From: Escherichia phage vB_EcoM-P3322
DNA: 64,000 bases
Direction: 5' to 3' (one strand)
Sequence record: PV191315.1
Part shown: piece by piece, positions 20,315 through 57,244 of the stretch
How positions within the stretch are numbered: position 1 is the stretch's first letter
How the letters are laid out: every line of letters begins with the position of its first letter
Position numbers and translations under genes: made by a program
Notes under the pieces: model-generated
Databases searched by the model: none
Seen by the model: only the letters and a program-made list of their open reading frames with translations
What the model was told of the DNA's origin: nothing

Positions 20315-20551
20315 ATGGGTAAACTAATTATGACAGTGGCTATTGATTTTGATGAAGTAGATGAAAGCCTCAACCTTTCACTTTCTACTGACGTAGATGG
20401 CGAAATGGATAATATTGAAGCAGCTACTGCTCTTTTCTTCAAAAAAGCCATTGAAGTTTATGCCGAACATGCTGCAAATCAGGCAGTAGATTACGGTGGT
20501 ATCGTGCGAGCTTTAGTTCACTCTACCGAGGGCAATGACTGGGAAGATTAA
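20315..20551 (+). CDS. hypothetical acidic protein
   Basis: RBS AAGGAG. Confidence 0.5.
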   Translation: MGKLIMTVAIDFDEVDESLNLSLSTDVDGEMDNIEAATALFFKKAIEVYAEHAANQAVDYGGIVRALVHSTEGNDWED

Positions 20552-20754
20552 TGGCTTACAATTATTACTGCATTTATGCACATGAAAAGAAAAAAGGTGA
20601 CACTGGGACTAACGTTTATGCGGAGTCCGAATCTCATGCAAAAGAGATTGGTGCTATCCTTTTATCACGCTGGACTGGAAATAATTACAGTGCAGAAGAT
20701 ATGTTTGCAGAAGTGGATTCTAGAATCCAAGAAGACAACATAACAACTACGTGA
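20551..20754 (+). CDS. hypothetical protein
   Basis: ATG overlaps upstream stop. Confidence 0.5.
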   Translation: MAYNYYCIYAHEKKKGDTGTNVYAESESHAKEIGAILLSRWTGNNYSAEDMFAEVDSRIQEDNITTT

Positions 20755-20763
20755 TATACTTAT

Positions 20764-20790
20764 ACTCCCTTTTCGGAGGGAGTATTTTAA
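20764..20790 (+). terminator. stem-loop terminator
   Basis: actccct-tttcgg-agggagt then attttaa. Confidence 0.6.
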
Positions 20791-20799
20791 GGAGGGATT

Positions 20800-20994
20800 A
20801 TGCAGAGCGGAGAAGAACTTTTAGAGAAACAATTCTCAACGCGTCAACAAGCTTTAAGTTATATGGTTTTTCTAAGCAATCTTGATGTGAATGAGATACT
20901 TTTACGGCGCGAAGGTAATTTCTGGAGCGTTAAATATCATGCAACAAGGTCTGTAATCTACCTGGAAGAGGCGGAATTCTCTTTGGTAGAATGA
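20800..20994 (+). CDS. hypothetical protein
   Basis: RBS AAGGAGGG. Confidence 0.5.
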   Translation: MQSGEELLEKQFSTRQQALSYMVFLSNLDVNEILLRREGNFWSVKYHATRSVIYLEEAEFSLVE

Positions 20995-33988: not shown

Positions 33989-34184
33989 TTCTACCTCCTT
34001 CAATGCTTTGTGCCGTACCATCCCAAGCCATTAGAATGTTTTCCAATAGTTCACGAGGCTCTTTAAACCAAACTTCCATTTCATCAAGAATCTCGTCCGT
34101 GTCGTAAGTATAACCTGGAACACCAAGTTCACATTTCTTAAGATAGCTTTCTAACCAGCGGTGATAATTCTTAACCCCATTCAT
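33981..34184 (-). CDS. hypothetical protein
   Basis: Track ORF. Confidence 0.45.
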   Translation of the reverse strand: MNGVKNYHRWLESYLKKCELGVPGYTYDTDEILDEMEVWFKEPRELLENILMAWDGTAQSIEGGRNE

Positions 34185-34557
34185 ACTGTGCTACCTTTTC
34201 TTTTACCCAATCTACACGATCTTTATCATAATGTTGAGTGCCAAGGAAAAGACCATTGTGGAAACTTTCCTCACCGAAAGGATAAATTGGATCTAAACCA
34301 TCTTCTTCAAACAACATTTTTAATCTGTTTGATGTAGATTTCTTAGTTTCTGAATTGTAGTTTGTGGTTATAAGCCAATCTTCCAAACAACGACACAAGC
34401 CTTGACGAGAATCCCAAGGAAAAACACAATCTCCGACAGGAGCTTGTTCCGCCCATTTCAACCAACCTTTAAAAAAGTTATACAATATGTAGTCTTCAGT
34501 GTAATACATTAGCGCCTCCTTTACATATACAATAACACCCCGCAGAACGGGGTGCAA
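34171..34557 (-). CDS. paralog family A member (divergent)
   Basis: Shares W..W......GLC.C....PF.....(V/I).WVKE.(V/I) pattern with 5 other ORFs. Confidence 0.55.
   Translation of the reverse strand: MHPVLRGVIVYVKEALMYYTEDYILYNFFKGWLKWAEQAPVGDCVFPWDSRQGLCRCLEDWLITTNYNSETKKSTSNRLKMLFEEDGLDPIYPFGEESFHNGLFLGTQHYDKDRVDWVKEKVAQYEWG
34536..34554 (-). other. intergenic hairpin
   Basis: caccccg-cagaa-cggggtg. Confidence 0.35.
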
Positions 34558-35176: not shown

Positions 35177-35449
35177 TCACCCCCAAGAAATATTTATATA
35201 TCTTACAATGTTTGCACTGTCTAAAGCCATGTTTGCACCACACCCACGCTCGCGCCAGTAACTAACAATACCTTCACAGATACTCTCTTGTATCTTCTTA
35301 TCACTTGGCATTTCTAGTATAAGACTTGGGTTGTGGATGTTTATGTTATAATATCCTTCCTCTGCGGCTTGAGCTACCAATTTACTTACTTTTTCAAAGT
35401 ACGGGGAATTAGTGGCATCTGCCATTGTTTTTAAGGTTTGTCTATCCAT
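35177..35449 (-). CDS. hypothetical protein
   Basis: Track ORF. Confidence 0.55.
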   Translation of the reverse strand: MDRQTLKTMADATNSPYFEKVSKLVAQAAEEGYYNINIHNPSLILEMPSDKKIQESICEGIVSYWRERGCGANMALDSANIVRYINISWG

Positions 35450-35814
35450 TATTCTGCCTCATCATAGAAGAAATCCAACTCTTGTTCCAGTTGTTTAACT
35501 CGATCCTTAACCCACTGTACACGTTTTTCATTAAACATGCAACGTTTTTCCTTACACTCTTGCTCAAAAGATTTTGCTGTGTTAAATGGGAAAGTTGTAT
35601 CTAAGCCAGCGTTTTCAAAACTGGCTAATTGCATACCATAAACAGAATATGCTAAAGAATGCTCGGCCCGAAATTCATCACTTATATACATACGTAGACC
35701 TCGGCATAAGCCAACATCAGCGTAACCACTTTCTCTTGGAAAGAGCCGGAGGTGTTCTAACCAATTATTATAGAAATCTAAAAGAATCCTCTTACACTTC
35801 AAATCGATTGTCAT
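35449..35814 (-). CDS. paralog family A member
   Basis: ATG 35814 after GAAGGAG; LLDFYNNWLEH...GLCRGL...PFN...RVQWVKDRV. Confidence 0.6.
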   Translation of the reverse strand: MTIDLKCKRILLDFYNNWLEHLRLFPRESGYADVGLCRGLRMYISDEFRAEHSLAYSVYGMQLASFENAGLDTTFPFNTAKSFEQECKEKRCMFNEKRVQWVKDRVKQLEQELDFFYDEAE

Positions 35815-36222: not shown

Positions 36223-36894
36223 CTATTTAATGTTCAGTCTGGCACACAAACGAGAAACAGTTTTAGCATCCCATTTACCACCACGTGCTGTTGCTATTTT
36301 CTTACTATTGAATTTTTCAGCAATAGTTTTGTAAGGGGTATTTAAATCTCTAAGGATCTCCAAGCGTTCACGGAATGTCTCTGCAAAAGCGTCTGCTTTA
36401 ACAGAATTGTATTCCATTTTTCCTTTTCTACGTGCAGCGGCAGTTTTAGGATTAGCACTGCCTAATAAAACACCTTTACTTTTTGCTACAGCAAGACCCT
36501 TTTTAATACGATCAGCAATACCTCTAACTTCTTGTTCAGCCAGAACAGACAGAAGCTGTATAACCATTTTATCTGCGTCTGGCATAATGGCTATCTTAAC
36601 ATCGATCATTTCTAGAAGAGTTGCTACGGAGGCGTTGTTACGACCCAAGCGGTCAACTTTAGCTACCAATAAAGTTGCTCCGGTAGCTTTACACATTTCA
36701 ACCGCTTTAACCAGTTCCTTACGTTGCTTCCAATCGCCCTTACCCGAATAGTATTCAGAAAATTGACCAATAACTTCCGCATCAGGCACAGAGTCTAAGA
36801 AGTAACGGATATCATTCTCTTGGCTCTCCATACCATATTGTGCCTCACCTTTTTTCTGTTTAGAAAGACGACTGTAAACAACAAACTTTTTCAT
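36223..36894 (-). CDS. serine recombinase (resolvase/invertase family)
   Basis: YSRLS (catalytic Ser region), VAKVDRLGRN, C-terminal HTH-like TARGGKW..TVSRL; ATG 36894 after AGGAGTGG. Confidence 0.75.
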   Translation of the reverse strand: MKKFVVYSRLSKQKKGEAQYGMESQENDIRYFLDSVPDAEVIGQFSEYYSGKGDWKQRKELVKAVEMCKATGATLLVAKVDRLGRNNASVATLLEMIDVKIAIMPDADKMVIQLLSVLAEQEVRGIADRIKKGLAVAKSKGVLLGSANPKTAAARRKGKMEYNSVKADAFAETFRERLEILRDLNTPYKTIAEKFNSKKIATARGGKWDAKTVSRLCARLNIK

Positions 36895-36914
36895 AACCAC
36901 TCCTAAACTATTGC

Positions 36915-36945
36915 TGTATTCTCACTTTACAAAACGAATAAACAC
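36915..36945 (-). promoter_or_regulatory. sigma70-like promoter for recombinase
   Basis: rc: TTGACA-17nt-TAAAGT. Confidence 0.45.
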
Positions 36946-36964
36946 TTGTCAAGGTATTTATTAT

Positions 36965-38332: not shown

Positions 38333-38659
38333 TCAACTATTTATTTCTTCTGCTACACGTTCTTTTACCCAGTTCACACGATCCACATTCAAATGACAAC
38401 GGCTTTTTTCCGCTTCTAAGGTGTACTTTCCAAAATTACTGTTGAAAGGCAACACCATAACCAAATCTTTGTGGTAGAACTGCTCATGCATTTCATCCAG
38501 TACGGGTTCGTATCGTTCGCTTTCACCCATATCGTAAAAATCATAGAGGTTCGAGCACAAACCTGTGCAACGGGTGAACGGTTCGCCTTCAGGAGCACCA
38601 GCTTCCAACCATGCCAAATACGTGCGGTAAAATGTTAATAGTTCTTCGCTCATTTCCAC
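38333..38659 (-). CDS. paralog family A member
   Basis: RBS GAAGGAG; FYRTYLAWLEAGAPEG...GLCSNL...PFN...HLNVDRVNWVKERV. Confidence 0.65.
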   Translation of the reverse strand: MEMSEELLTFYRTYLAWLEAGAPEGEPFTRCTGLCSNLYDFYDMGESERYEPVLDEMHEQFYHKDLVMVLPFNSNFGKYTLEAEKSRCHLNVDRVNWVKERVAEEINS

Positions 38660-38868: not shown

Positions 38869-39092
38869 TCTTCCATCTCAAACCATTCAGGGAACACTTT
38901 GCGGAAGACCCGCGTGTTTTCTAAGAGAAATTCCAACTCTTTTTCCAAATCTGCGTTCCAACCGTTTATTTTAACACGGATTGCCAATGCACTTGCACGG
39001 CGACTCAATTCTTGACAGATTGGATCACGCAGAACTATTGAGTCATAAAACTGACAAACAGCCTCAAGTTCATACCAGTTATAATCCGACAT
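38865..39092 (-). CDS. hypothetical protein
   Basis: Track ORF, ATGA-type overlap. Confidence 0.5.
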   Translation of the reverse strand: MSDYNWYELEAVCQFYDSIVLRDPICQELSRRASALAIRVKINGWNADLEKELEFLLENTRVFRKVFPEWFEMEE

Positions 39093-39418
39093 TATTCATC
39101 CTCCTCTGCAATACGATCTCTTACCCAATTAATCCTGTCCACATTCAGGTGACATACCTCTGCATCTGATTCTAAGACATATGCATCGTAGTTCTCATTG
39201 AAGGGTAATTCTTGACTCAACCCTTTGTGGTAAAACTGTGCGTGCATTTCATCTGCCAAGGTTGTTATAAGGGGATTGTAGCCATCCGCGTGCACATAGT
39301 CGAATAAGTTGGCACACAAACCGCAATCCCGCCGAAAAGGTTTACCATCAGGAGCACCAACATCAATCCATGCTAGATAAATTTTATAAAACTCCATCAA
39401 CCTTGCGCTTGTTTTCAT
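39092..39418 (-). CDS. paralog family A member
   Basis: FYKIYLAWIDVGAPDG...GLCANL...PFN...HLNVDRINWVRDRI. Confidence 0.65.
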   Translation of the reverse strand: MKTSARLMEFYKIYLAWIDVGAPDGKPFRRDCGLCANLFDYVHADGYNPLITTLADEMHAQFYHKGLSQELPFNENYDAYVLESDAEVCHLNVDRINWVRDRIAEEDE

Positions 39419-42129: not shown

Positions 42130-42330
42130 TTATTTATCTTGCTTGTATCTTACAAGGCGATCACACTCCAGGTCAAGAAATTTCTCCGCATTTCGTTCGT
42201 GTTTGAGCACAATACATTGTTCTTTCCAGTCTGTAGCTCTTTGCTGCGCTGCTCCTGGGTCAAAATCCCAAAGCCATGCCGCGAAAAGAACAACCATAAC
42301 AATTACTAAGAAACTAAACACTATTGGCAT
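42130..42330 (-). CDS. small membrane protein
   Basis: ATG 42330 after AGGAGGA; TM segment IVFSFLVIVMVVLFAAWLW. Confidence 0.5.
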   Translation of the reverse strand: MPIVFSFLVIVMVVLFAAWLWDFDPGAAQQRATDWKEQCIVLKHERNAEKFLDLECDRLVRYKQDK

Positions 42331-42635
42331 TGCACATCCTCCTGTGTAGCATGGTCTTTTACCCATTTTATACGGGCAGCATTCAAATGCAATAGCCCGT
42401 TTCTTTGTGCAAAATCATATTTAAACCAGTCTCCGTCATCAAACGGGTATTCTTCAGACAATCCTGCCTCACGGAATTGCATTTGCATTTCATAATTTAG
42501 ATCATCATAACCTCCAGTCCAAAGGTAGAGGCAACTACATAATCCTTTATCATGCCAGAAAGGATTATTATCTGGAGCACCAGCTAATAGCCAATTATGA
42601 TATGCCTGATAAAATTCTTTAAGTTCCTCTGACAT
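42321..42635 (-). CDS. paralog family A member
   Basis: RBS AGGAGG; FYQAYHNWLLAGAPDN...GLCSCL...PF...HLNAARIKWVKDH. Confidence 0.65.
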   Translation of the reverse strand: MSEELKEFYQAYHNWLLAGAPDNNPFWHDKGLCSCLYLWTGGYDDLNYEMQMQFREAGLSEEYPFDDGDWFKYDFAQRNGLLHLNAARIKWVKDHATQEDVQCQ

Positions 42636-46813: not shown

Positions 46814-48434
46814 GACAATCTCCTCTCATCGTTAGCCATCTTTCATGGCAATCATCAATCACCAACATCATACGATCAATCTCAGGGAATTACAATCGAA
46901 TTATCATAGGGGATTCCTATCAATTATCCCATATATACCGATTATTTTTGACACCCCACTCTTGTATAAAAAGTAACCCAAAATATCTACGGGGAGAGAT
47001 TATTTCGGGACACCCTGTTTCATGGCAATCATGGCAAGAATATCTAATAGAATCAATATCATATGGCAAAAATCATGACGCATACGTAAGAAGTGCTTAA
47101 CGCGAATTTTCGGGCCGTCAGGTCCACGCAGCGACAATTCCCAAATATCATGAGAATGAGAATAATTATCATTCGTATTCAATGACTTATGCAAGGCTCA
47201 TGCCAACATAGCGACAAGGTGGGCCACTTGATTATAAATCACACAAACACTTATTTATCAATAGGTTGGCAACTTCATCATATGACGGAACATTGTCAAC
47301 TGATCCCGCTCATGACAAGCAGACTATTATTTATATGAGAATGATTATTATTTAAACGTTTATTAACATAAAAATTAAAATAAATCAAGAATTTTCTGAT
47401 TTTATTTACGTTTAAGAGAAGATGCTCAACATCCTACCGGATCGCCGTTGGCAATCCTCGGATATTTACGCCCCCATGATTAAGGTTTATCTCTTTTCTT
47501 AGTGCTCAACATTCCCGCCCGTGGCGGTAACATTTCGCCCCCAAAATTATTGCTTTTTATTCTATTATGTGCATAGTGTGCAATGTATCGGAATGATGAT
47601 AATCATCCTCCCATTGCCCCCATAATTATTGCCATGCTAATGATTTCATCTTGTAATTACCACAATGATTATTGTTATTGCGCTAATGTTATGATCTTGG
47701 TAATTACATATAATGCTAATAATAAGCCAGCGCAATAAGTGTAAGCGTCATTACGCTTGCAATTATTGCAAGCTACGCAGTAACAAGAAATAACCATCAC
47801 CGATGGTTATGATTGTTGGGGTGTAGTTGGCTTATTATTAGCTCGCTATGTGTCCGGCATAGCGTGCTAATGATGATCCTGGGAATGATTCGTTTTGTAA
47901 TGATTTCATTCAGTCACTATTATGGCAATAGTTATTATTTTAATGGTTTCGTTTGTTATTGTTCGTTAGTTGGTTGTTTTGTCGTGTTATCGTTATCTTG
48001 CTTAGTATTCATCATGGTTTGATTGTTTGTCGTTATCAATCATCTTGCTATTATTCCTTTGATTATGATTAGTTTGCTTATTGTTTTAGGTTGTTGGTTA
48101 GTTAGTTGTTGCGAACTATTATCAACATTATAGTTATGCACTTATATTGCATAGATAAACATGGATAGATGATAATGGTTATCATTGAACTAGAAAAGAG
48201 GTAAAAGGGTGTTTTTGATGGTTTGTTGTTGGTTGTTGATCGATTTTAACCGCTATAAATGGCTCTCTAACAGCCTGTTACCCTGGGAGGTATGGTTATT
48301 CGTTTAATGGTTGATTAGCTCGATACCGCGATTTATTCAATTTTGTTCTGTGTCGGTTTTTCATAGGCGAAAGCTATCAACATTGTTCGGGCAAAAAGAA
48401 AGGGCGCTTGGTGCGCCCCTTGTTTTGTTGTCGC
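46814..48434. other. 1.6-kb ORF-poor region with iterons, palindromes and a GT-skewed tract; candidate origin/packaging/regulatory region
   Basis: No convincing ORF; direct repeats gctaatg..atcttg.taattac; perfect palindrome gcttgcaattattgcaagc; GT-rich low-complexity 47930-48130. Confidence 0.5.
48398..48429 (-). terminator. bidirectional hairpin terminator (copy 1 of AAGGGCGC-N5-GCGCCCTT)
   Basis: aaagggcgc-ttggt-gcgcccctt flanked by T/A runs. Confidence 0.6.
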
Positions 48435-49685: not shown

Positions 49686-49748
49686 CAGGCGGGAAACATT
49701 CCCGCCCTACGTGATAAATGATAATGTAAGCGTGATCCGGTGTCAATA
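49686..49748 (-). promoter_or_regulatory. PeSL-like unit
   Basis: hairpin ggcgggaaacattcccgcc; rc TTGACA-17-TATCAT. Confidence 0.65.
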
Positions 49749-49887
49749 GGTAGGATTGTAAAGATTTGATAGTTTATCTCTTTGATGTTTTGTTGTTTGA
49801 TAGATGTTAGCTATCAATATATAGCGGGGTCGTCCGGTGATTATCTTCCCCTGCTCCCAGGTGCCGCCCGTTCAATAAGTATAACAA

Positions 49888-49913
49888 AAAACAGGACAAA
49901 AACAAGCCCTGTT
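49888..49913 (-). terminator. hairpin terminator (minus strand)
   Basis: aaacagg-acaaaaacaagc-cctgttt with T-run on minus. Confidence 0.45.
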
Positions 49914-49921
49914 TATTTATC

Positions 49922-50056
49922 TTAAAACCAGTTGCCAACCGTTTCCAATAGGTCACTGACTACCAGGACAACATTAATCAGCACATATTCAACCAGGAAG
50001 GGAATAAGCGCCAGCGTTGCTACTACGATCCCCATTGTGATGATTACCTTTCTCAT
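49922..50056 (-). CDS. small membrane peptide (44 aa)
   Basis: Below track threshold; ATG 2 nt after upstream stop; hydrophobic. Confidence 0.35.
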   Translation of the reverse strand: MRKVIITMGIVVATLALIPFLVEYVLINVVLVVSDLLETVGNWF

Positions 50057-50058
50057 GG

Positions 50059-50343
50059 TTAGCGGCTTACGTAAGCTTTACCGTTTACGGTCATCGGTAT
50101 GGCCTCAAGGTCTGGATCTTCCTTAAGGTCGCGTGCAAGCTCACCGCAGCGGATACCCTCGAATCCGTGGTATTCTGTCGCGCCGTCCTGGAAAGTTTTA
50201 GCGGCAAGGCATAGGCGATAATTAACACCGATCCGGTTTACCGCGTTGATATCGGTTAACGTGATGGATTCAGGCAAATCATTAGCCATTACAGGCGCGT
50301 TAATACCAACAACCAGGGCAACTACTGCGATCATCTTTTTCAT
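50059..50343 (-). CDS. small secreted protein (signal peptide)
   Basis: MKKMIAVVALVVGINAPVMA; PeSL-like hairpin upstream. Confidence 0.6.
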   Translation of the reverse strand: MKKMIAVVALVVGINAPVMANDLPESITLTDINAVNRIGVNYRLCLAAKTFQDGATEYHGFEGIRCGELARDLKEDPDLEAIPMTVNGKAYVSR

Positions 50344-50369
50344 GTGTCTATCCTCTTCCTATTGCGTTT

Positions 50370-50392
50370 AATGGGGGCGTTACCGCCCTGCT
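50370..50392 (-). promoter_or_regulatory. PeSL-like hairpin
   Basis: gggggcg-ttac-cgccc. Confidence 0.5.
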
Positions 50393-50398
50393 TATGGT

Positions 50399-50635
50399 TT
50401 ATTGATTGATGTTATAATGAAAATTATTTTCTTCAATAGCTTTTAAAATAAAAGCCGTGATCGCTTTCGTGTCTACTTGTTCGAACGTATCAGAATAGCA
50501 CCAATAATAATCATCCCCTACTTTCGGCGGGTAAACCTGGACAAGGAGATCGCCACCTGGTTGATCTATAAGCTCAACATGCAAGCCGGATGATTCAGCG
50601 GTTTTAACGGCGGTTAATACTGTTGCAATACTCAT
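50399..50635 (-). CDS. hypothetical protein
   Basis: Track ORF; hairpin upstream. Confidence 0.6.
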   Translation of the reverse strand: MSIATVLTAVKTAESSGLHVELIDQPGGDLLVQVYPPKVGDDYYWCYSDTFEQVDTKAITAFILKAIEENNFHYNINQ

Positions 50636-50652
50636 AATCTTTTCCTTTCTGA

Positions 50653-50672
50653 TGTGGGGCGTTGCCGCCCCT
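50653..50672 (-). promoter_or_regulatory. PeSL-like hairpin
   Basis: ggggcg-ttgc-cgcccc. Confidence 0.5.
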
Positions 50673-50679
50673 TTGTTGA

Positions 50680-50979
50680 TTAGATCGCTGTTTCCAGTAG
50701 TTCGGCTAACGTCTTACCGCCTGATAGTTGGTCTAACGTTTGCTCTTCTGGCAAGAAATTAGCTGATATTAATCCGACTTGATTTCCTTTGTGCCAATTA
50801 GCTTGACGGATGATTCCATCCTTTAAAGATTTTACCGCCATTGTGCAACCGTCGCCAAATGATTCATTTTTATGATCCATCACTTCATAAGCGCCCAGCT
50901 TGCTACTGTTAGGCACCATTAACGCGAATACATCACCAACAACCAGTTTTTCTACGGTAATAATAGCGATAGTTTCCAT
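50680..50979 (-). CDS. hypothetical protein
   Basis: RBS AGGAAAG; PeSL upstream. Confidence 0.6.
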   Translation of the reverse strand: METIAIITVEKLVVGDVFALMVPNSSKLGAYEVMDHKNESFGDGCTMAVKSLKDGIIRQANWHKGNQVGLISANFLPEEQTLDQLSGGKTLAELLETAI

Positions 50980-50985
50980 TTTACT

Positions 50986-51046
50986 TTCCTCATTATCGGC
51001 GGCACCATTGCCGCCCTACGTGGTAAATATTAGCACACTGGCGATC
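50986..51046 (-). promoter_or_regulatory. PeSL-like unit
   Basis: hairpin ggcggcaccattgccgcc; rc TTGACA at 51039-51044. Confidence 0.65.
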
Positions 51047-51060
51047 TGTGTCAATACTTT

Positions 51061-51447
51061 TTATTCAATATAAATCAAATTATCTTCACCAATGTAAGCC
51101 GACACGTTCGGCATAAACTTAGCTGCATTGGTTAGGCGGTTGGCTGTGTTAGTGGTGTATATTTCAGGGCGATCCCAAAAGCCTACGCCGTGACCGTTAC
51201 GGGTAAAATGTAAATCATTCCCGATCTGGTTGGCTGTTGCGCCGTCGCTCATTGCCTCAGAGATAGCGGCAAGATTAGCATTAATAAAGGCTGTTACATC
51301 CTGGGCGATCCGTTGATCTGCGCTAGGAGAAAAATCATAATCGTCTAAGTTATCAATAAAATTACCTTCATGATCCCTTGCTGATTCAGCAAAAATAAAG
51401 GCTTCTTTATAGCCGTTGATGATTTCAATAATGATTTCTGTTTTCAT
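51061..51447 (-). CDS. hypothetical protein (conserved HFTRNGHGVGFWDR motif)
   Basis: Track ORF, 128 aa. Confidence 0.6.
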   Translation of the reverse strand: MKTEIIIEIINGYKEAFIFAESARDHEGNFIDNLDDYDFSPSADQRIAQDVTAFINANLAAISEAMSDGATANQIGNDLHFTRNGHGVGFWDRPEIYTTNTANRLTNAAKFMPNVSAYIGEDNLIYIE

Positions 51448-51668
51448 GCTGTACGCTCGACAATAATAATAGTTTGCGGGATCTCGTTTTCTACTACTAA
51501 CAAGGCTTTTTTCTGTGTGATAGATATTTTAACACGTTGTAAAGTAGCGGTAAAATCTTTCATTTCATTATGCGCGGATTTAGTACAATGCCAGATCTCA
51601 GGCTTACCAACTTGTAAGCCGCGTAAAAATTCCGTTTTGCCTGTTTTGTTCGTGATCATTTGTTTCAC
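51444..51668 (-). CDS. hypothetical protein
   Basis: Track ORF, overlaps neighbours. Confidence 0.55.
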   Translation of the reverse strand: MKQMITNKTGKTEFLRGLQVGKPEIWHCTKSAHNEMKDFTATLQRVKISITQKKALLVVENEIPQTIIIVERTA

Positions 51669-51669
51669 C

Positions 51670-51774
51670 TTAACCGATACCGTGGGAAGATAGGATCATA
51701 TTAGCCATAGTTGCAACTACTCCAACCGATAACGCCAGGCCAACCACTGCAACCGTGAAAATTTTCTCTAACAT
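51670..51774 (-). CDS. small single-TM peptide (34 aa)
   Basis: ATG 51774 after GAGGGTAG, downstream of PeSL; track start 51873 reads through the hairpin. Confidence 0.45.
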   Translation of the reverse strand: MLEKIFTVAVVGLALSVGVVATMANMILSSHGIG

Positions 51775-51790
51775 GATTCTACCCTCATTA

Positions 51791-51856
51791 ATGGGCGTTG
51801 CACCATTGCCCCGCCCTACGTAATACACTTTACTAGATAACAAATTATTGTCAAGC
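51791..51856 (-). promoter_or_regulatory. PeSL-like unit
   Basis: hairpin gggcgttgcaccattgccccgccc; rc TTGACA at 51849-51854. Confidence 0.6.
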
Positions 51857-51857
51857 T

Positions 51858-51995
51858 TTATTTTACTTCCCAAACGGAAAATTCGCTGCCTGTTGGGATC
51901 ATTTTTTTAATCTTGTTTGCTGCCGCTACCAGGTCAACGGCTTGTACTGTAATAATATAACCAATTGTCGAGGCTGTTGCGTTGAAAGTTTTCAT
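51858..51995 (-). CDS. small hypothetical protein (45 aa)
   Basis: Below track threshold; RBS AAAGGG; perfect palindrome upstream. Confidence 0.35.
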   Translation of the reverse strand: MKTFNATASTIGYIITVQAVDLVAAANKIKKMIPTGSEFSVWEVK

Positions 51996-52012
51996 TATAT
52001 TGCCCTTTAATA

Positions 52013-52034
52013 CAGGCGGGATTAATCCCGCCTT
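52013..52034 (-). promoter_or_regulatory. perfect palindromic hairpin
   Basis: ggcgggattaatcccgcc. Confidence 0.5.
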
Positions 52035-52039
52035 TTTGA

Positions 52040-52210
52040 TTACTCTTCATTATCGCCGTTATAGTATTCAATGCCGTTTTCATCGGTTACGGTGATGTTA
52101 ACGCCACCGATAGCAACACGATCACGGGCAAACGTCATAGCTTCATTTAAATCTTCAGACCAAAAAATATTGTGACCTTTGCGCGATACATAAAACATAG
52201 TCGGGATCAT
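52040..52210 (-). CDS. hypothetical protein
   Basis: ATG 52210 after AGAAGAGAAA; track N-terminus reads through PeSL. Confidence 0.5.
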   Translation of the reverse strand: MIPTMFYVSRKGHNIFWSEDLNEAMTFARDRVAIGGVNITVTDENGIEYYNGDNEE

Positions 52211-52230
52211 GATTTGTTTCTCTTCTGTTA

Positions 52231-52296
52231 TGAGCGGTGGACCATTCCGCCGCCCTATGTGGTAAACTTTACTACGTTGTTTGCCTGCTGTCAAAC
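52231..52296 (-). promoter_or_regulatory. PeSL-like unit
   Basis: hairpin agcggtggaccattccgccgccc; rc TTGACA at 52289-52294. Confidence 0.6.
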
Positions 52297-52580
52297 TATT
52301 TTTTAATGTTTTGCCCTACAAAATCGATCACTTCCTTAAGCTGTCTCTCTGTCATGATCGTACCTGGTAACTCTTCTTTAATTTCTTCCGGTAAATAGAT
52401 ATTACCGCGCCAGGTTAACAAACAACCGTTTTGATCTTCGCAGATAGAATAAGAAAACATCCACTCGCAATCATTTTCAAGCTCCCAAAAACACAAAAAG
52501 TCTTCTTTCCCTAAGTTTTCAACGGTTAAACATAATCCGCGACGTGCTGCATAATTAGTTAGGCTTTTTGTGATTTTCAT
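52296..52580 (-). CDS. hypothetical protein
   Basis: ATG 52580 after AGAAGAGAGAAA. Confidence 0.55.
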   Translation of the reverse strand: MKITKSLTNYAARRGLCLTVENLGKEDFLCFWELENDCEWMFSYSICEDQNGCLLTWRGNIYLPEEIKEELPGTIMTERQLKEVIDFVGQNIKK

Positions 52581-52598
52581 GATTTTTCTCTCTTCTTG

Positions 52599-52659
52599 TG
52601 AGCGGCACCATTGCCGCCCTACAAGATACATATTACCAGATTAAGCGGACTTGTCAAAC
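52599..52659 (-). promoter_or_regulatory. PeSL-like unit
   Basis: hairpin agcggcaccattgccgccc; rc TTGACA-17-TAATAT. Confidence 0.65.
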
Positions 52660-52769
52660 TATTTTTTCTTTTTCTTTGCTTTCAATCGTCTAAGGTTACG
52701 GCTGGACTTATTGCGCAAGGCGCTTAGATCGTCGTACCCTTTCCATGCTTGCATATCTTTCGGATTCAT
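52659..52769 (-). CDS. small basic peptide (36 aa)
   Basis: Below track threshold; RBS AAGGGGATAAC; Lys-rich C-terminus. Confidence 0.35.
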   Translation of the reverse strand: MNPKDMQAWKGYDDLSALRNKSSRNLRRLKAKKKKK

Positions 52770-52778
52770 GTTATCCCC

Positions 52779-52940
52779 TTACTTGTTAGCCGGATCATAT
52801 ACCAGGACCGCGCCGCTTGCTTTCACGCTTTCCGCTTCATAGTTGCGCAGATCGTTTTCTGTAAGATTGAGCGCGATCACTTCCTCGATCTCAACGCCAG
52901 CGGCAAGGGCGATCTCTTTGATAATATCTGTTGTTTTCAT
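52779..52940 (-). CDS. hypothetical protein
   Basis: ATG 52940 after AAGGTG. Confidence 0.5.
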   Translation of the reverse strand: MKTTDIIKEIALAAGVEIEEVIALNLTENDLRNYEAESVKASGAVLVYDPANK

Positions 52941-52950
52941 GGTGTGCACC

Positions 52951-53070
52951 TTATAAGATGATTGATAAGATAGTGACAACGAAAGCGATTATACTGATGG
53001 CAAATGTCATCTTTTTACCTTCGGATACTGCCGGATTTTCTACCGTGTATTCTACTGTGTACTTGCTCAT
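52951..53070 (-). CDS. small single-TM peptide (39 aa)
   Basis: Below track threshold; RBS GAGAGGATTA; FAISIIAFVVTILSIIL. Confidence 0.4.
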   Translation of the reverse strand: MSKYTVEYTVENPAVSEGKKMTFAISIIAFVVTILSIIL

Positions 53071-53091
53071 CGTGTAATCCTCTCGTTTGCT

Positions 53092-53152
53092 TTGGGAACT
53101 ATTCCCGCCGCCCTATGAATTAAATATACACTATCTCAAAATGATTGCAAGC
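53092..53152 (-). promoter_or_regulatory. PeSL-like unit
   Basis: hairpin gggaactattcccgccgccc; rc TTGCAA -35. Confidence 0.55.
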
Positions 53153-53168
53153 CTTTTTCTAAATTATT

Positions 53169-53453
53169 TTATTCAGTAAACAAACCATCATTTACAACGG
53201 CGGCGATGATCTCCCGTGCCATTGATTCAGGGAAAGGGGCGCTATAGTCCTGGCTTGTCTCATCGGTATCGGTGATCCAATGATAAGCTAACGAGTAAAA
53301 GCCTTTACTAACTGTTTTCAGTGAGATGATGATCACTCGGTCAAGCTTATTGGTGAATGTTGCCGTTAATGTGTTACCCTCCTGCGTCATGTTGGACAAG
53401 TAAGCGAGATCATTAATCAGGGAAAACATTAGCACGGTGTTAGCTTTACTCAT
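53169..53453 (-). CDS. hypothetical protein
   Basis: ATG 53453 after GAGGATG. Confidence 0.55.
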   Translation of the reverse strand: MSKANTVLMFSLINDLAYLSNMTQEGNTLTATFTNKLDRVIIISLKTVSKGFYSLAYHWITDTDETSQDYSAPFPESMAREIIAAVVNDGLFTE

Positions 53454-53468
53454 GATTGCATCCTCAAA

Positions 53469-53529
53469 GGGGCGCGGCACCATTGCCGCCCTACACGATA
53501 ACTATAACACAATGTAAAACAGGGTCAAC
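53469..53529 (-). promoter_or_regulatory. PeSL-like unit
   Basis: hairpin gcgcggcaccattgccgccc; rc TTGACC -35. Confidence 0.6.
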
Positions 53530-53731
53530 CTTTATTTTTCCACGGTGTCAGCTTGTTAATCATTGGTGATAAATAGCGTTTACCAACGTAAAACAGTACG
53601 CCAACTGATGCAACGGCGGCGACCTCATGCATAGCCGACGGGAAACGGGTATCATAATAAGATCCAATAATAGCAATAGCGGCAACGGCTGCAACGTCGA
53701 TAATGATTTTCTCTTGTTTTGCGGTGATCAT
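53525..53731 (-). CDS. small two-TM membrane protein
   Basis: RBS AAAAAGG; hydrophobic segments. Confidence 0.55.
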   Translation of the reverse strand: MITAKQEKIIIDVAAVAAIAIIGSYYDTRFPSAMHEVAAVASVGVLFYVGKRYLSPMINKLTPWKNKG

Positions 53732-53750
53732 AGTATTTACCTTTTTGTAT

Positions 53751-53811
53751 GGTGGGGAACTATTCCCCGCCTGATGTAATACAGTTTAACAGGTCCGGTT
53801 ATGGTGTCAAC
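53751..53811 (-). promoter_or_regulatory. PeSL-like unit
   Basis: hairpin ggggaactattccccgcc; rc TTGACA at 53804-53809. Confidence 0.6.
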
Positions 53812-53816
53812 CACTT

Positions 53817-54002
53817 TTAAAGATATTTTATGCTAATGACGTTTTCAGGTTTTACCTTGTTATAATGTGCATCAACATAGATCAAACCATCGTCAGAAAA
53901 GCCCAGGATCACGCCCTGCGCGATAAAACCGTACTCGTCACGGTAACGCACGGCTATTTTTAATGTTGCGTTGTAGGCTGTTTTAAGCTCGTTTAAAGTC
54001 AT
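53817..54002 (-). CDS. hypothetical protein
   Basis: RBS AGAGGATAA. Confidence 0.55.
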   Translation of the reverse strand: MTLNELKTAYNATLKIAVRYRDEYGFIAQGVILGFSDDGLIYVDAHYNKVKPENVISIKYL

Positions 54003-54029
54003 TTTTGTTTATCCTCTACATGTAAAAAG

Positions 54030-54051
54030 AAAGGGCGCTTGATGCGCCCTT
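54030..54051 (-). terminator. hairpin terminator (copy 3 of AAGGGCGC-N5-GCGCCCTT)
   Basis: aaagggcgc-ttgat-gcgccctt. Confidence 0.55.
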
Positions 54052-54057
54052 GTTATG

Positions 54058-54204
54058 TTAATCCTCTAAATCCATCCAATTATATTTGTCACTCTTCCCG
54101 CGCTTTGTTTTATTACGCTTGTCACCTTTGCGGATCACTTCCTCGTTCCAGGCCTTGCGGATCTTGGAAGATTGAATTTTTTCTGCGCGATTAGATGTAT
54201 TCAT
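54058..54204 (-). CDS. small basic protein (48 aa)
   Basis: Below track threshold; RBS AAGAGGAAAC. Confidence 0.4.
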   Translation of the reverse strand: MNTSNRAEKIQSSKIRKAWNEEVIRKGDKRNKTKRGKSDKYNWMDLED

Positions 54205-54220
54205 TTTGTTTCCTCTTTAT

Positions 54221-54279
54221 ATGAGCGGCACCATTGCCGCTATATTGTTAATTTAAACTGTTTTGTAAAATTGTCAAGG
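54221..54279 (-). promoter_or_regulatory. PeSL-like unit
   Basis: hairpin gagcggcaccattgccgct; rc TTGACA at 54272-54277. Confidence 0.6.
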
Positions 54280-54283
54280 TTTA

Positions 54284-54637
54284 TCATTCATAAGAGCAAG
54301 CAAGGATCACGCCTGCAATATAAAGCCAATAATTTTCCCTTTCTCGTTGGATTTTATCATCGCTGCTATTCTCTTTAATGTATCCCCAGGATGTTAACAA
54401 GCGATCAATTTCCCAATATTCGAAAGCTATATTAATATCTGATGGCAAACCTTGTAACCATGATGCAAGTGCTTTAACAATACTATAATTAAAACGTGAT
54501 TGATTATCAGGGTACCAGTACTCGGAATTAAAACGGCGCATCAATTCCGCGATCTTCTCTTTTTCGGTTGTAATACCGTAATCATTAAAATCGATAGCGG
54601 CAAGGATGTACTCTTTAATTGCATTTTGTGCTTTCAT
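54284..54637 (-). CDS. hypothetical protein
   Basis: RBS AAGAGAGAAAG. Confidence 0.6.
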   Translation of the reverse strand: MKAQNAIKEYILAAIDFNDYGITTEKEKIAELMRRFNSEYWYPDNQSRFNYSIVKALASWLQGLPSDINIAFEYWEIDRLLTSWGYIKENSSDDKIQRERENYWLYIAGVILACSYE

Positions 54638-54652
54638 GGTCTTTCTCTCTTT

Positions 54653-54714
54653 TTAGCGGGAACTATTCCCGCCCTACGTGTAACAGTTTACTGAAAATTA
54701 AATCCGTGTCAAGC
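54653..54714 (-). promoter_or_regulatory. PeSL-like unit
   Basis: hairpin agcgggaactattcccgcc; rc TTGACA at 54707-54712. Confidence 0.65.
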
Positions 54715-54715
54715 T

Positions 54716-54937
54716 TTATTTTGTTACTACCATTTGGTACCCTGTTTCAATGTTAGTAAATACTGTTATCCCGTCCTGGCGTTCACTCATTAGCATACAA
54801 GGCGCTAACATCCTTTCTACTGCCTTGCACTCATTGTAAACGGCGGTTATGTCTCCTGCGGCCTTGTCTTCTGTGGTGAATGTATCGTTTATGTAAACTT
54901 GACTAGCGACAACGGCGACAATAGCGAAAGTGATCAT
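54716..54937 (-). CDS. small secreted protein (signal-peptide-like)
   Basis: RBS AAAGAGAAA; MITFAIVAVVASQVY. Confidence 0.55.
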   Translation of the reverse strand: MITFAIVAVVASQVYINDTFTTEDKAAGDITAVYNECKAVERMLAPCMLMSERQDGITVFTNIETGYQMVVTK

Positions 54938-55010
54938 GATATTTTTCTCTTTATGTGTTTCTATTAGTTGATATTACAGCAATTCGCAGATTATTTTTTA
55001 GCAATTCGTG

Positions 55011-55229
55011 CTATTTACTCATAACAGTATCGAAAACAAATTTTTCTTTGTTGTCAAAGCTCACGTATCCGATTCTACCACGCAAGCCGCAAGTAGTGCC
55101 GTATTCGTAACCGTCAAGACCTTTAACCTTCCAATCCACGCCCATTAAAACCGCATTATATTTCTGACCAACTACAAACGCGCCACCAGTTGATTCAATG
55201 CAAACAACTTTAATTTTACGGATTGCCAT
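55011..55229 (-). CDS. hypothetical protein
   Basis: RBS AGAAAGAGAGAAAG. Confidence 0.55.
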   Translation of the reverse strand: MAIRKIKVVCIESTGGAFVVGQKYNAVLMGVDWKVKGLDGYEYGTTCGLRGRIGYVSFDNKEKFVFDTVMSK

Positions 55230-55267
55230 TTTCTTTCTCTCTTTCTGGTGATTGGTTTCTCTTCTCT

Positions 55268-55310
55268 ATAGCGCCCATTGTAAGGCGCTATAACGAAAAG
55301 TCAACGATTA
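55268..55310 (-). promoter_or_regulatory. variant promoter/hairpin unit
   Basis: hairpin tatagcgcc-cattgtaa-ggcgctata; rc TTGACT -35. Confidence 0.45.
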
Positions 55311-55475
55311 TTTTTTAAGGCTTAAAGTACCTAACTTGTCAGCATGACGCAGACCAGGGAATATCCATTTGCCTGACTCATCTTTCACCGGGGCTTTAAG
55401 CGTAGCGCCCAGGTTGGCGGCGTTAACTTTACGTGCAACGTTGCGAGCGGCTTCACGGGTAGCGAAAGTGATCAT
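55308..55475 (-). CDS. small hypothetical protein (55 aa)
   Basis: Below track threshold; RBS GAGGAAAACACC. Confidence 0.4.
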   Translation of the reverse strand: MITFATREAARNVARKVNAANLGATLKAPVKDESGKWIFPGLRHADKLGTLSLKK

Positions 55476-55497
55476 GGTGTTTTCCTCTTCTCTTTGT

Positions 55498-55563
55498 TAG
55501 GCGGTGGACCATTCCGCCGCCTTGATGTAATACAGTTTACTTTATTTTATTAAGATTGCAAGC
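55498..55563 (-). promoter_or_regulatory. PeSL-like unit
   Basis: hairpin ggcggtggaccattccgccgcc; rc TTGCAA -35. Confidence 0.6.
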
Positions 55564-55567
55564 GGTT

Positions 55568-55783
55568 TTATGAAATAATTGTCAAAGTAAAATCATAAGA
55601 CTGATTTAATTTATATTGTACTTTATTGCCGTAGTAGTCACCTTTACGTAAAGATCCGCGAATACCTATCACATCCTTTACATCTTTAAGATTTTTTACG
55701 CCTGTAATGTCTTTATTGAAATACTCGTCATCTGAAAATAAAACTTGACTTGCATTTTTTAACAGTGTACGGATATTAGCCAT
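55568..55783 (-). CDS. hypothetical protein
   Basis: RBS AGAAGAGAGATTA. Confidence 0.55.
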   Translation of the reverse strand: MANIRTLLKNASQVLFSDDEYFNKDITGVKNLKDVKDVIGIRGSLRKGDYYGNKVQYKLNQSYDFTLTIIS

Positions 55784-55805
55784 CGTGATAATCTCTCTTC
55801 TGTTG

Positions 55806-55866
55806 TGAGCGGCACTATTGCCGCCCTACGTAATACAGTTTACTCTTTTTCTTTCCGGTGTCAACA
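55806..55866 (-). promoter_or_regulatory. PeSL-like unit
   Basis: hairpin gagcggcactattgccgccc; rc TTGACA-16-TAAACT. Confidence 0.65.
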
Positions 55867-55873
55867 ATCTTTT

Positions 55874-56101
55874 TCAGATTAATTCATCCAGGCATAACAG
55901 GCGATCAACGTTGAGATCGGTTAGGCTGATGGTTGGCACCTGGTAGGATTCGATGTACTCGACGCTTGCATATTCCCCAAAATTAGCAACAGCCCACTTA
56001 TTCAAGATCTCACATACATCATTAATCTTTTTGTTTGTTACAACTGCAATGACCTGGGAAGTGCCAACGGTGCCGGATACGCGAACAATATTGATAGCCA
56101 T
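55874..56101 (-). CDS. hypothetical protein
   Basis: RBS AGAGAGATTAAAG. Confidence 0.55.
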   Translation of the reverse strand: MAINIVRVSGTVGTSQVIAVVTNKKINDVCEILNKWAVANFGEYASVEYIESYQVPTISLTDLNVDRLLCLDELI

Positions 56102-56120
56102 AATCTTTAATCTCTCTGTT

Positions 56121-56184
56121 TTGGCGGGAAACCACTTCCCGCCCTATGTGATACATCTTACACTAATTTTAAACGTTGTCAACT
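56121..56184 (-). promoter_or_regulatory. PeSL-like unit
   Basis: hairpin ggcgggaaaccacttcccgccc; rc TTGACA at 56177-56182. Confidence 0.65.
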
Positions 56185-56191
56185 GTTTTTA

Positions 56192-56431
56192 TTACATTCC
56201 AACCATCGCGGCACGGATCGCAGTAGTGCTATATTTGAAACCGTCTGGCGTTTTATCTTGTCCAGTTTGTTCCAGAAAAAGCATCATATCCCGCGCCGCA
56301 TCATTACGATTAGCATTAGCGTTAATAAAATCTTGGGCCAACCGGTATAACGATTCATCGTTATTAATCCAAAGGCTTACATTCCAATGAGTTTTGTTTT
56401 TGTGACCGTTGTACATTTTAGATTTAGCCAT
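56192..56431 (-). CDS. hypothetical protein
   Basis: RBS AAAGAGAGAAAA. Confidence 0.55.
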   Translation of the reverse strand: MAKSKMYNGHKNKTHWNVSLWINNDESLYRLAQDFINANANRNDAARDMMLFLEQTGQDKTPDGFKYSTTAIRAAMVGM

Positions 56432-56452
56432 GATTTTTCTCTCTTTTTCAGT

Positions 56453-56516
56453 GAGGCGGGAAGTGTTCCCGCTCTCTATGTAATACAGTTTACTCTTTTT
56501 ATTCGTGCTGTCAATG
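56453..56516 (-). promoter_or_regulatory. PeSL-like unit
   Basis: hairpin gaggcgggaagtgttcccgctctc; rc TTGACA at 56509-56514. Confidence 0.6.
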
Positions 56517-56520
56517 CTTT

Positions 56521-56886
56521 TTATAAATCTTTTTTACGTTTTACATCGCTCGCATGACTGTATACAGTGATCCCATTGTCACGGCAAAAACGGGAAAGAT
56601 ACGCGCCGCGTGAAAACTCTTTACCTTCCATATTAATAACCTTGCTAAATTCTTCTAGGGCAACGGTATCAAAATGATCCCCATAGCCATATTGAAACGG
56701 AACGTTAACTACTTCGATCAGTTTACCGCCGATCTCAACATCAACCATCAAAGAGAAATAAGTATTACCATAAGACTTTTGAAACCAGCGACGGGCGCTA
56801 ATATGTACCGCTTCAATGCTGGATAGTTCAATTTTAGCAGTGTTAGCCAGGGTAGCATAAGCAGAAACATTGATATTTTTAGCCAT
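56521..56886 (-). CDS. hypothetical protein
   Basis: RBS AAGAGATTAAAG. Confidence 0.6.
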   Translation of the reverse strand: MAKNINVSAYATLANTAKIELSSIEAVHISARRWFQKSYGNTYFSLMVDVEIGGKLIEVVNVPFQYGYGDHFDTVALEEFSKVINMEGKEFSRGAYLSRFCRDNGITVYSHASDVKRKKDL

Positions 56887-56909
56887 AGTCTTTAATCTCT
56901 TTTGATTAG

Positions 56910-56964: not shown

Positions 56965-56981
56965 GTATAAGACTAAAACTT

Positions 56982-57161: not shown

Positions 57162-57179
57162 GATGTTAACCTTTTATTG

Positions 57180-57240: not shown

Positions 57241-57244
57241 GTTT

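Follow-up and report, generated by a model that had tools for sequence, protein, structure and literature searches.

Phage site-specific recombinases are normally read as markers of lysogeny, tail-fiber switching, or transposons, and phage-therapy pipelines flag them as a safety concern. Here, we describe a serine recombinase gene in a 64,000-nt stretch of the genome of Escherichia phage vB_EcoM-P3322 (PV191315.1; the whole of this stretch is hereafter called the window). The 5-kb stretch around the gene is 97-99.5% identical to ~70 GenBank phages of the genus Phapecoctavirus (Stephanstirmvirinae), to which the window belongs. Members of this group, among them phAPEC8, ESCO13, and iGC_PHA_EC001, are lytic myoviruses of E. 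coli with genomes of ~150 kb.

Tn3/gamma-delta resolvase, Sin, RK2 ParA, and the beta recombinase of pSM19035 resemble the window protein in the Y-x-R-x-S and D-R-L-x-R motifs, in helix E, and in small size, and resolvases and plasmid multimer-resolution recombinases also have their own promoter ahead of the gene. Members of the window protein's family share with resolvases a palindromic, 2-bp-centered site just upstream, and they have homologues on small plasmids. However, the ~75-amino acid C-terminal domain of the window protein is large-integrase-like and not of the HTH_7 type, the 64 bp upstream of its gene leave no room for a three-subsite res, and its replicon is a lytic phage with terminal repeats. 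The Din-family invertases (Mu Gin, P1 Cin, Salmonella Hin, and e14 Pin) are likewise phage-borne small serine recombinases, but the window has no flanking inverted repeats or invertible segment, its recombinase gene does not lie beside tail-fiber genes, and its DNA-binding domain is a different one.

The large serine integrases (Bxb1, phiC31, TP901-1, and SPbeta SprA) have a similar catalytic domain, and the start of their Recombinase domain aligns as far as residues ~202-216 of the window protein; several homologues of the latter carry a precomputed PF07508 match. These integrases exceed 450 amino acids, whereas the window protein has 223 and lacks a complete Recombinase domain, a zinc ribbon, and a coiled coil, and a prophage state was not found for the window phage in 5,426 complete E. 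coli genomes. In IS607-type serine transposases, an N-terminal MerR-like helix-turn-helix is followed by the catalytic domain, an order that is reversed here. The P1 Cre/loxP system has one recombinase and one site per genome, and its substrates are copies of the phage DNA in terminally redundant or multimeric form. This system is a functional analog only, as Cre is a tyrosine recombinase, P1 is temperate, and no lox-like site was identified in the window phage. The window protein is also related to an uncharacterized family of ~215-245 amino acids, many members of which have an upstream AACGnnCGTT-type site, but its DNA-binding domain differs from theirs.

GenBank records already name the gene DNA invertase, resolvase, or serine recombinase, and it is an uncharacterized new member of a known enzyme kind. 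What sets it apart is its retention in strictly lytic phages and the combination of a frozen catalytic core with a variable DNA-binding domain. In the literature, we found an unreferenced remark (PMC10282059) by which the gene serves to keep concatemers as single genomes, no other comment on it, and nothing on phi92 gp053 or the ICP1 homologues.

A small serine recombinase under strong selection, with a conserved promoter

The gene, its motifs, and its expression signals are located in the window as follows.

36223-36894, minus strand: serine recombinase coding sequence, 223 amino acids, start codon ATG at 36894 and stop codon TAG at 36223-36225 (open reading frame, Pfam, PHROG)
36862-36876, minus strand: catalytic motif YSRLS, residues 7-11, with S11 as the predicted nucleophile (alignment of 43 homologues)
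36637-36666, minus strand: core motif VAKVDRLGRN, residues 77-86, with D81, R82, and R85 invariant
36226-36459, minus strand: C-terminal DNA-binding domain, residues 146-223, four helices, resembling the first part of the large-integrase 'Recombinase' domain and hypervariable between lineages
36900-36904, minus strand: Shine-Dalgarno sequence AGGAG, 5 nt ahead of the ATG
36924-36952, minus strand: sigma-70-type promoter, TTGACA (36947-36952), 17-nt spacer, TAAAGT (36924-36929)

Pfam Resolvase (PF00239) covers residues 5-142 (E = 5e-18) and PHROG 125, 'DNA invertase', matches with E = 3e-32, which places the serine recombinase identity far beyond chance. The active site is intact: Y7, R9, S11, Q25, R58, D81, R82, and R85 are invariant in the 43-sequence family alignment. 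The longest form of the open reading frame begins with a GTG at 36900, two codons above the ATG (36223-36900, 225 amino acids). Since AGGAG precedes the ATG at 36894, this codon is the likely start and the GTG is less likely.

In the AlphaFold model (predicted local distance difference test score, 88.6), a catalytic domain of the resolvase type is followed by a long helix E (residues 109-139) and four C-terminal helices. A structure search matched it to Sin, to the gamma-delta and Tn3 resolvases, and to the TP901-1, Bxb1, and SPbeta integrases, and among these matches the large integrases aligned furthest into the C-terminus. In the family profile, positions 20-202 align to Bxb1 and 46-216 to the SPbeta integrase, and of the proteins with solved structures, Gin comes closest to the catalytic domain in sequence (E = 1e-17). 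No Pfam match to HTH_7 was found in the 78-amino acid C-terminus; PF07508 'Recombinase' matched residues 187-216 weakly (E = 0.003, below the curated cut-off), and the 223-amino acid protein has no zinc-ribbon or coiled-coil domain. The enzyme is thus a small serine recombinase with a large-integrase-like DNA-binding module and not the HTH_7 of ~40 amino acids that resolvases and invertases have.

The original prediction, made from the letters of this stretch, had read a 223-amino acid serine recombinase with the YSRLS and VAKVDRLGRN motifs here, and both the identity (minus strand) and the motifs are confirmed, S11 being invariant among the homologues. The helix-turn-helix-like C-terminal segment that it noted corresponds to the four modeled helices of the predicted ~75-amino acid DNA-binding domain, and the choice that it posed between a small and a large serine recombinase falls to the small class. 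It was also right in seeing neither tail-fiber neighbors nor a prophage context, and the promoter that it assigned to the gene is present, with its -35 hexamer just beyond the end coordinate of 36945 given at the time.

Promoter-like matches in the region were slightly above the shuffle expectation (24 found versus 18.3 expected). The hexamers of the recombinase promoter are kept, with diverged spacer and flanks, in phiWec181-like phages, Justusliebigvirus, Klebsiella-type relatives, and Shewanella phages, the form in Justusliebigvirus and the Klebsiella type being TTGACw with an extended -10 TGCATACT. Sigma-70-like hexamers were also seen by eye ahead of the ICP1 homologue and of another Vibrio homologue. 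Because the hexamers persist across lineages while the spacers diverge, we take the promoter to be real. No terminator was found to separate this promoter from the gene upstream, the spacer on that side is 64 bp long, and the downstream gene begins 8 nt past the recombinase stop. The absence of an upstream terminator and the closeness of the next gene mark it as an internal promoter of an early polycistronic array and not as an isolated unit.

Three distant homologues have inverted repeats in the 5' untranslated region that pair with the Shine-Dalgarno sequence, namely those of ICP1 2017_DRC_48 (locus L006, 5935-6000), Vibrio phage 277E43-1 (L112, 6915-6990), and locus L033 (4110-4150). Examples of such repeats are CCTCTG...CAGAGGA, CCCCTGA...TCAGGGG, and CCTCC...GGAGG, and they suggest translational control by a hairpin in these homologues.

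A tblastn search found the recombinase in 167 phage records, 62 of them at ≥99% identity, and most of these at 100% among the matches listed. About 71 Phapecoctavirus-type records carry it, and it appears to be fixed in this genus. A 57%-identical orthologue occurs in 56 of 56 Justusliebigvirus records, including phi92 (gp053), with the locus covered in a single piece. Further homologues are found in Klebsiella phages (52-55% identity), in ~130-150-kb Shewanella and Vibrio phages (35-38%), where only some of the Vibrio records have one, and in ICP1 (30% among the isolates listed).

Compared with four Phapecoctavirus genomes that differ by 1-3% in their DNA, the recombinase codons show 36 synonymous and 0 nonsynonymous differences. 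Nonsynonymous changes were present in 9 of 11 neighboring genes, and the recombinase is the most constrained of the twelve genes in its 5-kb block, so the label of 'accessory' that had been attached to this block does not really suit the recombinase gene. Collectively, our data show that the recombinase is under very strong selection in the strictly lytic coliphages of the phAPEC8/phi92 type.

This constraint is unevenly distributed between the two domains. Within Phapecoctavirus proper the entire protein is invariant. Relative to phiWec181, the catalytic domain is 95% identical, with a nonsynonymous rate (dN) of 0.039 and a synonymous rate (dS) of 1.46 (dN/dS, ~0.03), whereas residues 146-223 are only 37% identical (dN, 0.69; dS, 1.0). 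Two C-terminal types occur among the close homologues examined (74-81% identity overall), one in the window phage, P0002, and P0003, and the other in phiWec181, Tr1, and P0006. From these domain identities, catalysis is rigidly kept, and DNA-binding specificity apparently differs by lineage, having been either replaced or quickly changed.

Phage Schickermooser (MK373788.1) was considered as a natural knockout and then dropped, as its indel stretch also breaks the upstream gene and looks like poor sequence. The stretch (L003, 11100-11560) is ~450 bp long and has many 1-7-nt deletions that disrupt the DUF7202 gene as well as the recombinase in its N-terminal half, with clean flanks. It is probably poor sequence rather than a natural pseudogene.

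Gene location and the search for target sites

The window includes an unoccupied counterpart of the recombinase locus of related phages and a physical end of the genome.

20755-20799, plus strand: empty 'site A', a 45-bp spacer with a terminator-like hairpin, filled by the recombinase in Justusliebigvirus and Klebsiella-type relatives
47098-47432, no strand assigned: single collapsed copy of a direct terminal repeat of ~330 bp, with the left physical genome end here

Direct terminal repeats of 328 bp have been reported for Schickermooser (PMC6563267) and of 342 bp for BME3 (PMC12210895), and terminal repeats are also given for the whole subfamily Stephanstirmvirinae (PMC12695924). Since the Schickermooser repeat maps inside the window (47426 to 47098), the window spans the junction of the right and left genome ends. 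The left, early arm consists of minus-strand small genes and runs from ~46.8 kb down to ~30 kb of the window, and the start of the recombinase gene is ~10.5 kb away from the left genome end. The phages of this group are described as lytic in PMC10282059 and in further abstracts.

In BME3 and in a Klebsiella-type contig, promoter and open reading frame lie between homologues of the window genes at 20551-20754 and 20800-20994, whereas Phapecoctavirus and the phiWec-like phages have the recombinase in the left arm instead. In Shewanella phage 1/4, the order is lysozyme and PhoH, followed at intervals by ligase and by the recombinase, a hypothetical gene, and a DprA-like gene. This agrees with the Justusliebigvirus order, and in both cases the recombinase lies amid genes of DNA metabolism. 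Given this agreement, the 20.7-kb site is probably ancestral, and the position in the window would be a later relocation of promoter and open reading frame alone. The fixed position within each genus argues against ongoing mobility. Indeed, we found no presence/absence polymorphism in ~71 Phapecoctavirus-type and 56 Justusliebigvirus records, and no flanking repeats or footprints were seen.

Only promoter and open reading frame change position between the sister genera, and the flanking genes stay behind. The notion that the enzyme mobilizes a surrounding cassette, one of three roles offered in the original prediction, is thus left without support. No partner gene emerged either: no neighbor family is common to more than 12 of 80 relative loci, and DUF7202 adjoins the recombinase only in the Phapecoctavirus and phiWec lineages. 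The neighboring genes had no Pfam, PHROG-function, or PADLOC assignment, and neither the recombinase nor the nine flanking proteins matched a defense family. In the ICP1 isolate examined, the homologue lies in a gene block without legacy numbering.

We searched for repeat pairs in the window and in the other 85.5 kb of a 99.3%-identical relative, and no convincing inverted or direct pair was found. The search yielded terminator hairpins, a promoter-plus-hairpin family, paralogous genes, Fur-box-like motifs, and pairs at chance level. All records around the recombinase align as a single piece on one strand, and the 24.5-kb tail-fiber region has one place and one strand in every Phapecoctavirus record among the matches listed. 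The exact protein is present in 884 blocks of public assemblies; none of these is on a contig >1 Mb, and 10 of the 10 contexts shown are phage, with the same three upstream and four downstream neighbors. Inversion of a nearby segment, another of the proposed roles, therefore finds no credible repeat pair and a single arrangement throughout. Among the 5,426 complete E. coli genomes, neither the recombinase gene nor its promoter region or dyad had a match. Contexts of bacterial homologues (Pseudomonas and a second prophage) adjoin tail genes, but no clear repeats were found there.

Two weak candidates for a binding or crossover site lie in the promoter region.

36937-36962, no strand assigned: candidate site 1, a 26-bp imperfect dyad AATAAATACCTT-GA-CAAGTGTTTATT with 9 of 12 arm pairs, over the -35 hexamer (weak)
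36917-36940, no strand assigned: candidate site 2, TATTC-N14-GAATA, around the -10 hexamer (weak)

The first is unique in the genome, with no second copy at up to 7 mismatches. As an operator it was rejected: its left arm is the A/T-rich element that also stands upstream of the -35 hexamer in the phiWec181, Shewanella, and L033 promoters, and its right arm is unconserved. At the place aligned to the second, phiWec181 has GCTTC-N14-GAAGC, a weak hint that candidate site 2 might co-vary between the two. The geometries of the candidate sites differ in other lineages. Matching the DNA-binding-domain type to upstream dyads at six site-B-type loci (five distinct upstream sequences) gave inconsistent dyad geometries and was abandoned. 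A crossover site in the terminal repeat was rejected as well, since the conserved dyads there are Fur-box-like, have odd 7-1-7 symmetry, occur in five copies, and are unsuited.

Relatives of the recombinase offer a clearer layout. The two-domain architecture of ~215-245 amino acids is common: of the IMG/VR candidates checked, at least 542 relatives share it, as do homologues on 124 plasmids, and family members match the window recombinase over its full length at 33-40% identity. Some of the plasmids with full-length homologues are only 5.8-6.4 kb in size and non-mobilizable; on such small plasmids, the usual role of a recombinase is multimer resolution. In 22 of 80 IMG/VR loci, AACGnnCGTT (≤1 mismatch) lies no more than 120 nt ahead of the gene, as compared to ~2.6 expected; the motif is absent near the window recombinase. 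Dyads of the 12-2-12 form with at least 9 of 12 arm pairs are found upstream in 25.6% of relative loci versus 7.6% of control windows. The relatives' upstream sites are single-copy in every locus tested. Thus, the 32-bp dyad over the -10 hexamer of Shewanella phage 1/4 is unique in the complete 133.8-kb genome, and a 5.8-kb complete, non-mobilizable Klebsiella plasmid has a unique 34-bp dyad 33 bp upstream of its homologue (16-bp arms, 13 of 16 positions complementary, 2-bp center). A gene with one adjacent, 2-bp-centered palindrome is the layout of multimer-resolution or cyclization systems and also that of int-attP, a likeness by which we read these loci.

Between Shewanella phages 1/40 (L017, 5955-5990) and 1/4 (L018, 5955-5990), the central 16 bp of the 32-bp dyad are exactly inverted, and the 8-bp outer arms and the flanks are identical. 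This could reflect template switching at a quasi-palindrome or be a trace of recombinase activity.

Possible roles of the recombinase

Given this layout, we tentatively favor, at somewhat less than an even chance, a single-site system of the resolvase or Cre-like kind that would act between genome copies and on its own promoter. The gene would be an old, mostly vertically inherited single-gene module of the phage group, and host RNA polymerase would transcribe it in the early left arm, starting at the gene's own sigma-70 promoter. Its product, predicted to be an active small serine recombinase made up of a resolvase-type catalytic domain, helix E, and a helix-turn-helix domain of ~75 amino acids, would bind as dimers to one lineage-specific palindromic site in phage DNA. 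By analogy with the relatives, the putative site may lie in the gene's own promoter region (36917-36962), where binding would repress the recombinase promoter. Synapsis would bring together two such sites from separate genome units, and strands would be exchanged at a central dinucleotide via Ser11. The substrates could be tandem concatemer units, multimeric circles, or co-infecting genomes, and the outcome would be the release or re-sorting of unit-length genomes, presumably to the benefit of the phage.

The family architecture, the plasmid relatives, the DNA-metabolism neighborhood in relatives, and the lack of repeat pairs all agree with a single-site model, given that a system with one site per genome would explain the absence of a pair in the phage. 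Of the three roles offered in the original prediction, action on replication concatemers is the best-supported guess by analogy with single-site phage and plasmid family members; the part that did not materialize is the cognate site, which was not demonstrated in the phage.

Several points weigh against this model. Terminal-repeat phages with T7-like packaging package from concatemers, and resolving these is not obviously useful. Classical small resolvases require ~120 bp of accessory sites and supercoiled substrates, and here only 64 bp are available upstream. Judging from the sequence comparisons, a fast-changing DNA-binding domain would be awkward for a cis site that has to change along with it and better fits an arms race. 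As to the cognate site, the window offers weak candidate dyads only. A dyad score of 9 of 12 is reached by 5.5% of random 91-nt stretches, and the right arm of the 36937-36962 dyad is not conserved in phiWec181. By our estimate, the 5-bp arms of candidate site 2 are expected by chance about once per region. In the Justusliebigvirus/Klebsiella-type lineage, there is no promoter-adjacent palindrome, only the promoter hexamers being conserved upstream, and single-nucleotide polymorphism patterns in 11 genomes revealed no special breakpoint at the promoter, mosaicism being pervasive everywhere.

The arms-race signature would suit an enzyme that acts in trans and early, by rearranging, excising, or inactivating a site in the host chromosome, a prophage, a satellite, a defense island, or a competing phage, and we regard such a role as unlikely but worth serious attention. 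It agrees with the host-type promoter in a left arm of the early, host-takeover type and with a phage genome that has no pair of sites, and the hypervariable DNA-binding domain beside a frozen core looks like one that follows changing targets. The homologue's presence in only some Vibrio records and the place of the 30%-identical ICP1 copy in a block without legacy numbers point the same way, small serine recombinases are genetically linked to bacterial defense islands (PMC13552941), and host Pin-type recombinases are reported to affect phage adsorption. However, the promoter region is unmatched in the E. coli genomes, so there is no candidate host site; the gene is fixed, not patchy, in two genera, it lies in a DNA-metabolism neighborhood in relatives, neither it nor its nine flanking proteins match a defense family, and the relatives' site adjoins their own gene. 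A protein that is now mainly a sequence-specific DNA-binding regulator (of itself or of early genes), with recombination rare or vestigial, seems improbable to us. Family palindromes do lie over or near the gene's own promoter, with the Shewanella dyad overlapping the -10 hexamer, and Tn3/gamma-delta resolvase represses its own promoter, but all catalytic residues are invariant in the 43 homologues. Since the catalytic domain is the most constrained part (dN/dS, ~0.03), a role in DNA binding only would be unexpected. No more probable is a selfish, self-mobilizing element consisting of promoter and open reading frame, comparable to homing endonuclease genes and of no benefit to the phage. The differing loci in sister lineages, the boundaries that precisely enclose a single gene, the contrast between an occupied site A in BME3 and a vacant one in the window, the lack of a partner gene, and the unnumbered block in the ICP1 isolate are all in keeping with it. 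Yet one relocation suffices for the distribution, no presence/absence polymorphism was seen in the ~71 and 56 records, the gene order in common with Shewanella phage 1/4 speaks for a long history of vertical descent, neither flanking repeats nor footprints were seen, and conservative recombination, unlike homing, has no means of copying a gene into an allele that lacks it.

The two roles with which such genes are usually credited fare worse. A Gin/Hin-type invertase that flips a phage segment, such as a tail-fiber or promoter switch, is very improbable, despite the 'DNA invertase' label in several GenBank records and in PHROG 125, the standing of Gin as the best solved-structure match, and the tail genes next to distant homologues in Pseudomonas and another prophage: no inverted-repeat pair beyond chance or terminators was found in the window or the rest of the close relative's genome, tail-fiber genes are not near, their 24.5-kb region is on one strand in the Phapecoctavirus records among the matches listed, ten of ten exact-protein contexts have one arrangement, and the C-terminal domain is not of the HTH_7 type. 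Least probable of all is an integrase role, with a lysogenic or integrated carrier state that stays hidden; Ralstonia phage phiRSM has a small serine integrase of this sort. A gene beside a single site is the int-attP layout too, and small serine recombinases are able to integrate phages (PMC3816273). Against this, the gene is unmatched in the 5,426 complete E. coli genomes, the exact protein is on no contig >1 Mb, and the phages are described as lytic in PMC10282059 and in further abstracts. Integration is thus contradicted for the window phage, and inversion and cassette mobilization, which lack support, are disfavored.

More broadly, it is possible, though doubtful, that virulent terminal-repeat myoviruses (phi92/phAPEC8-type and marine) long keep a serine recombinase for lytic growth, either for genome processing (cyclization or unit release) or as an early weapon against host or rival DNA, with a swapped or fast-evolving DNA-binding domain retargeting the frozen core. 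The two genera that carry the gene are lytic coliphages that are therapeutic candidates. As the recombinase is fixed and strongly selected in both and no integrated copy was found in the 5,426 complete E. coli genomes, it should not count as evidence of temperance. Its substrate, if found, would reveal a recombinase-dependent replication step in terminal-repeat phages or a new manipulation of host or rival. In addition, compact recombinases, each with a short single site, could yield new orthogonal engineering tools, and the naturally modular DNA-binding domain hints at retargetability.

Other features of the window and its relatives

Next to the terminal repeat, ~70 bp of the window (47433-47502) are missing from Schickermooser. 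By eye, five AT-rich dyads (47155-47179, 47331-47355, 48164-48190, 60126-60150, and 60187-60211) agree with the E. coli Fur-box 7-1-7 consensus TGATAATnATTATCA at 13-14 of 15 positions. Two of them are inside the terminal repeat and are kept in that of BME3 (Justusliebigvirus), the rest of the repeat being only ~69% alike. These dyads could reflect iron/Fur control or serve as a binding site for a phage protein at the genome ends.

On the minus strand of the right arm (49690-59138), a ~75-nt element occurs at least 15 times, ahead of small genes. Each copy combines a sigma-70-like promoter (TTGACA-16-TATAGT) with a GC-rich hairpin GGCGGCAATGGTGCCGCC located where the transcript starts, an arrangement similar to the 'promoter early stem-loop' repeats known from other large phages. 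On both sides of the recombinase lie genes for paralogous early proteins of ~105-130 amino acids (34171-34509, 35449-35814, 38333-38653, 39092-39418, and 42321-42635). Three scanned members match phrog_2510, and the other two are assigned from shared DNA repeats. These paralogues account for the direct repeats D8, D13, and D19.

A natural variant on a contig from Logan assembly ERR12949680 (L098, locus 5664-8561) seems to be missing most of its left-arm genes from the terminal region up to the block that directly precedes the recombinase, and it retains the recombinase and its immediate neighbors. Left-arm gene content is plastic around a stable core.

Some database labels require care. MT496970.1 labels the recombinase 'methionine ABC transporter ATP-binding protein', and MN850648.1 labels the 70-amino acid DUF7202 gene 'putative ABC transporter ATP-binding protein'. 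The same ABC-transporter product names stand under the match in MW175890.1 and NC_052660.1, probably through the same mislabeling. Several 'Campylobacter phage' (B15, A145, A150, and C3) and 'Acinetobacter phage' records are ordinary Stephanstirmvirinae genomes.

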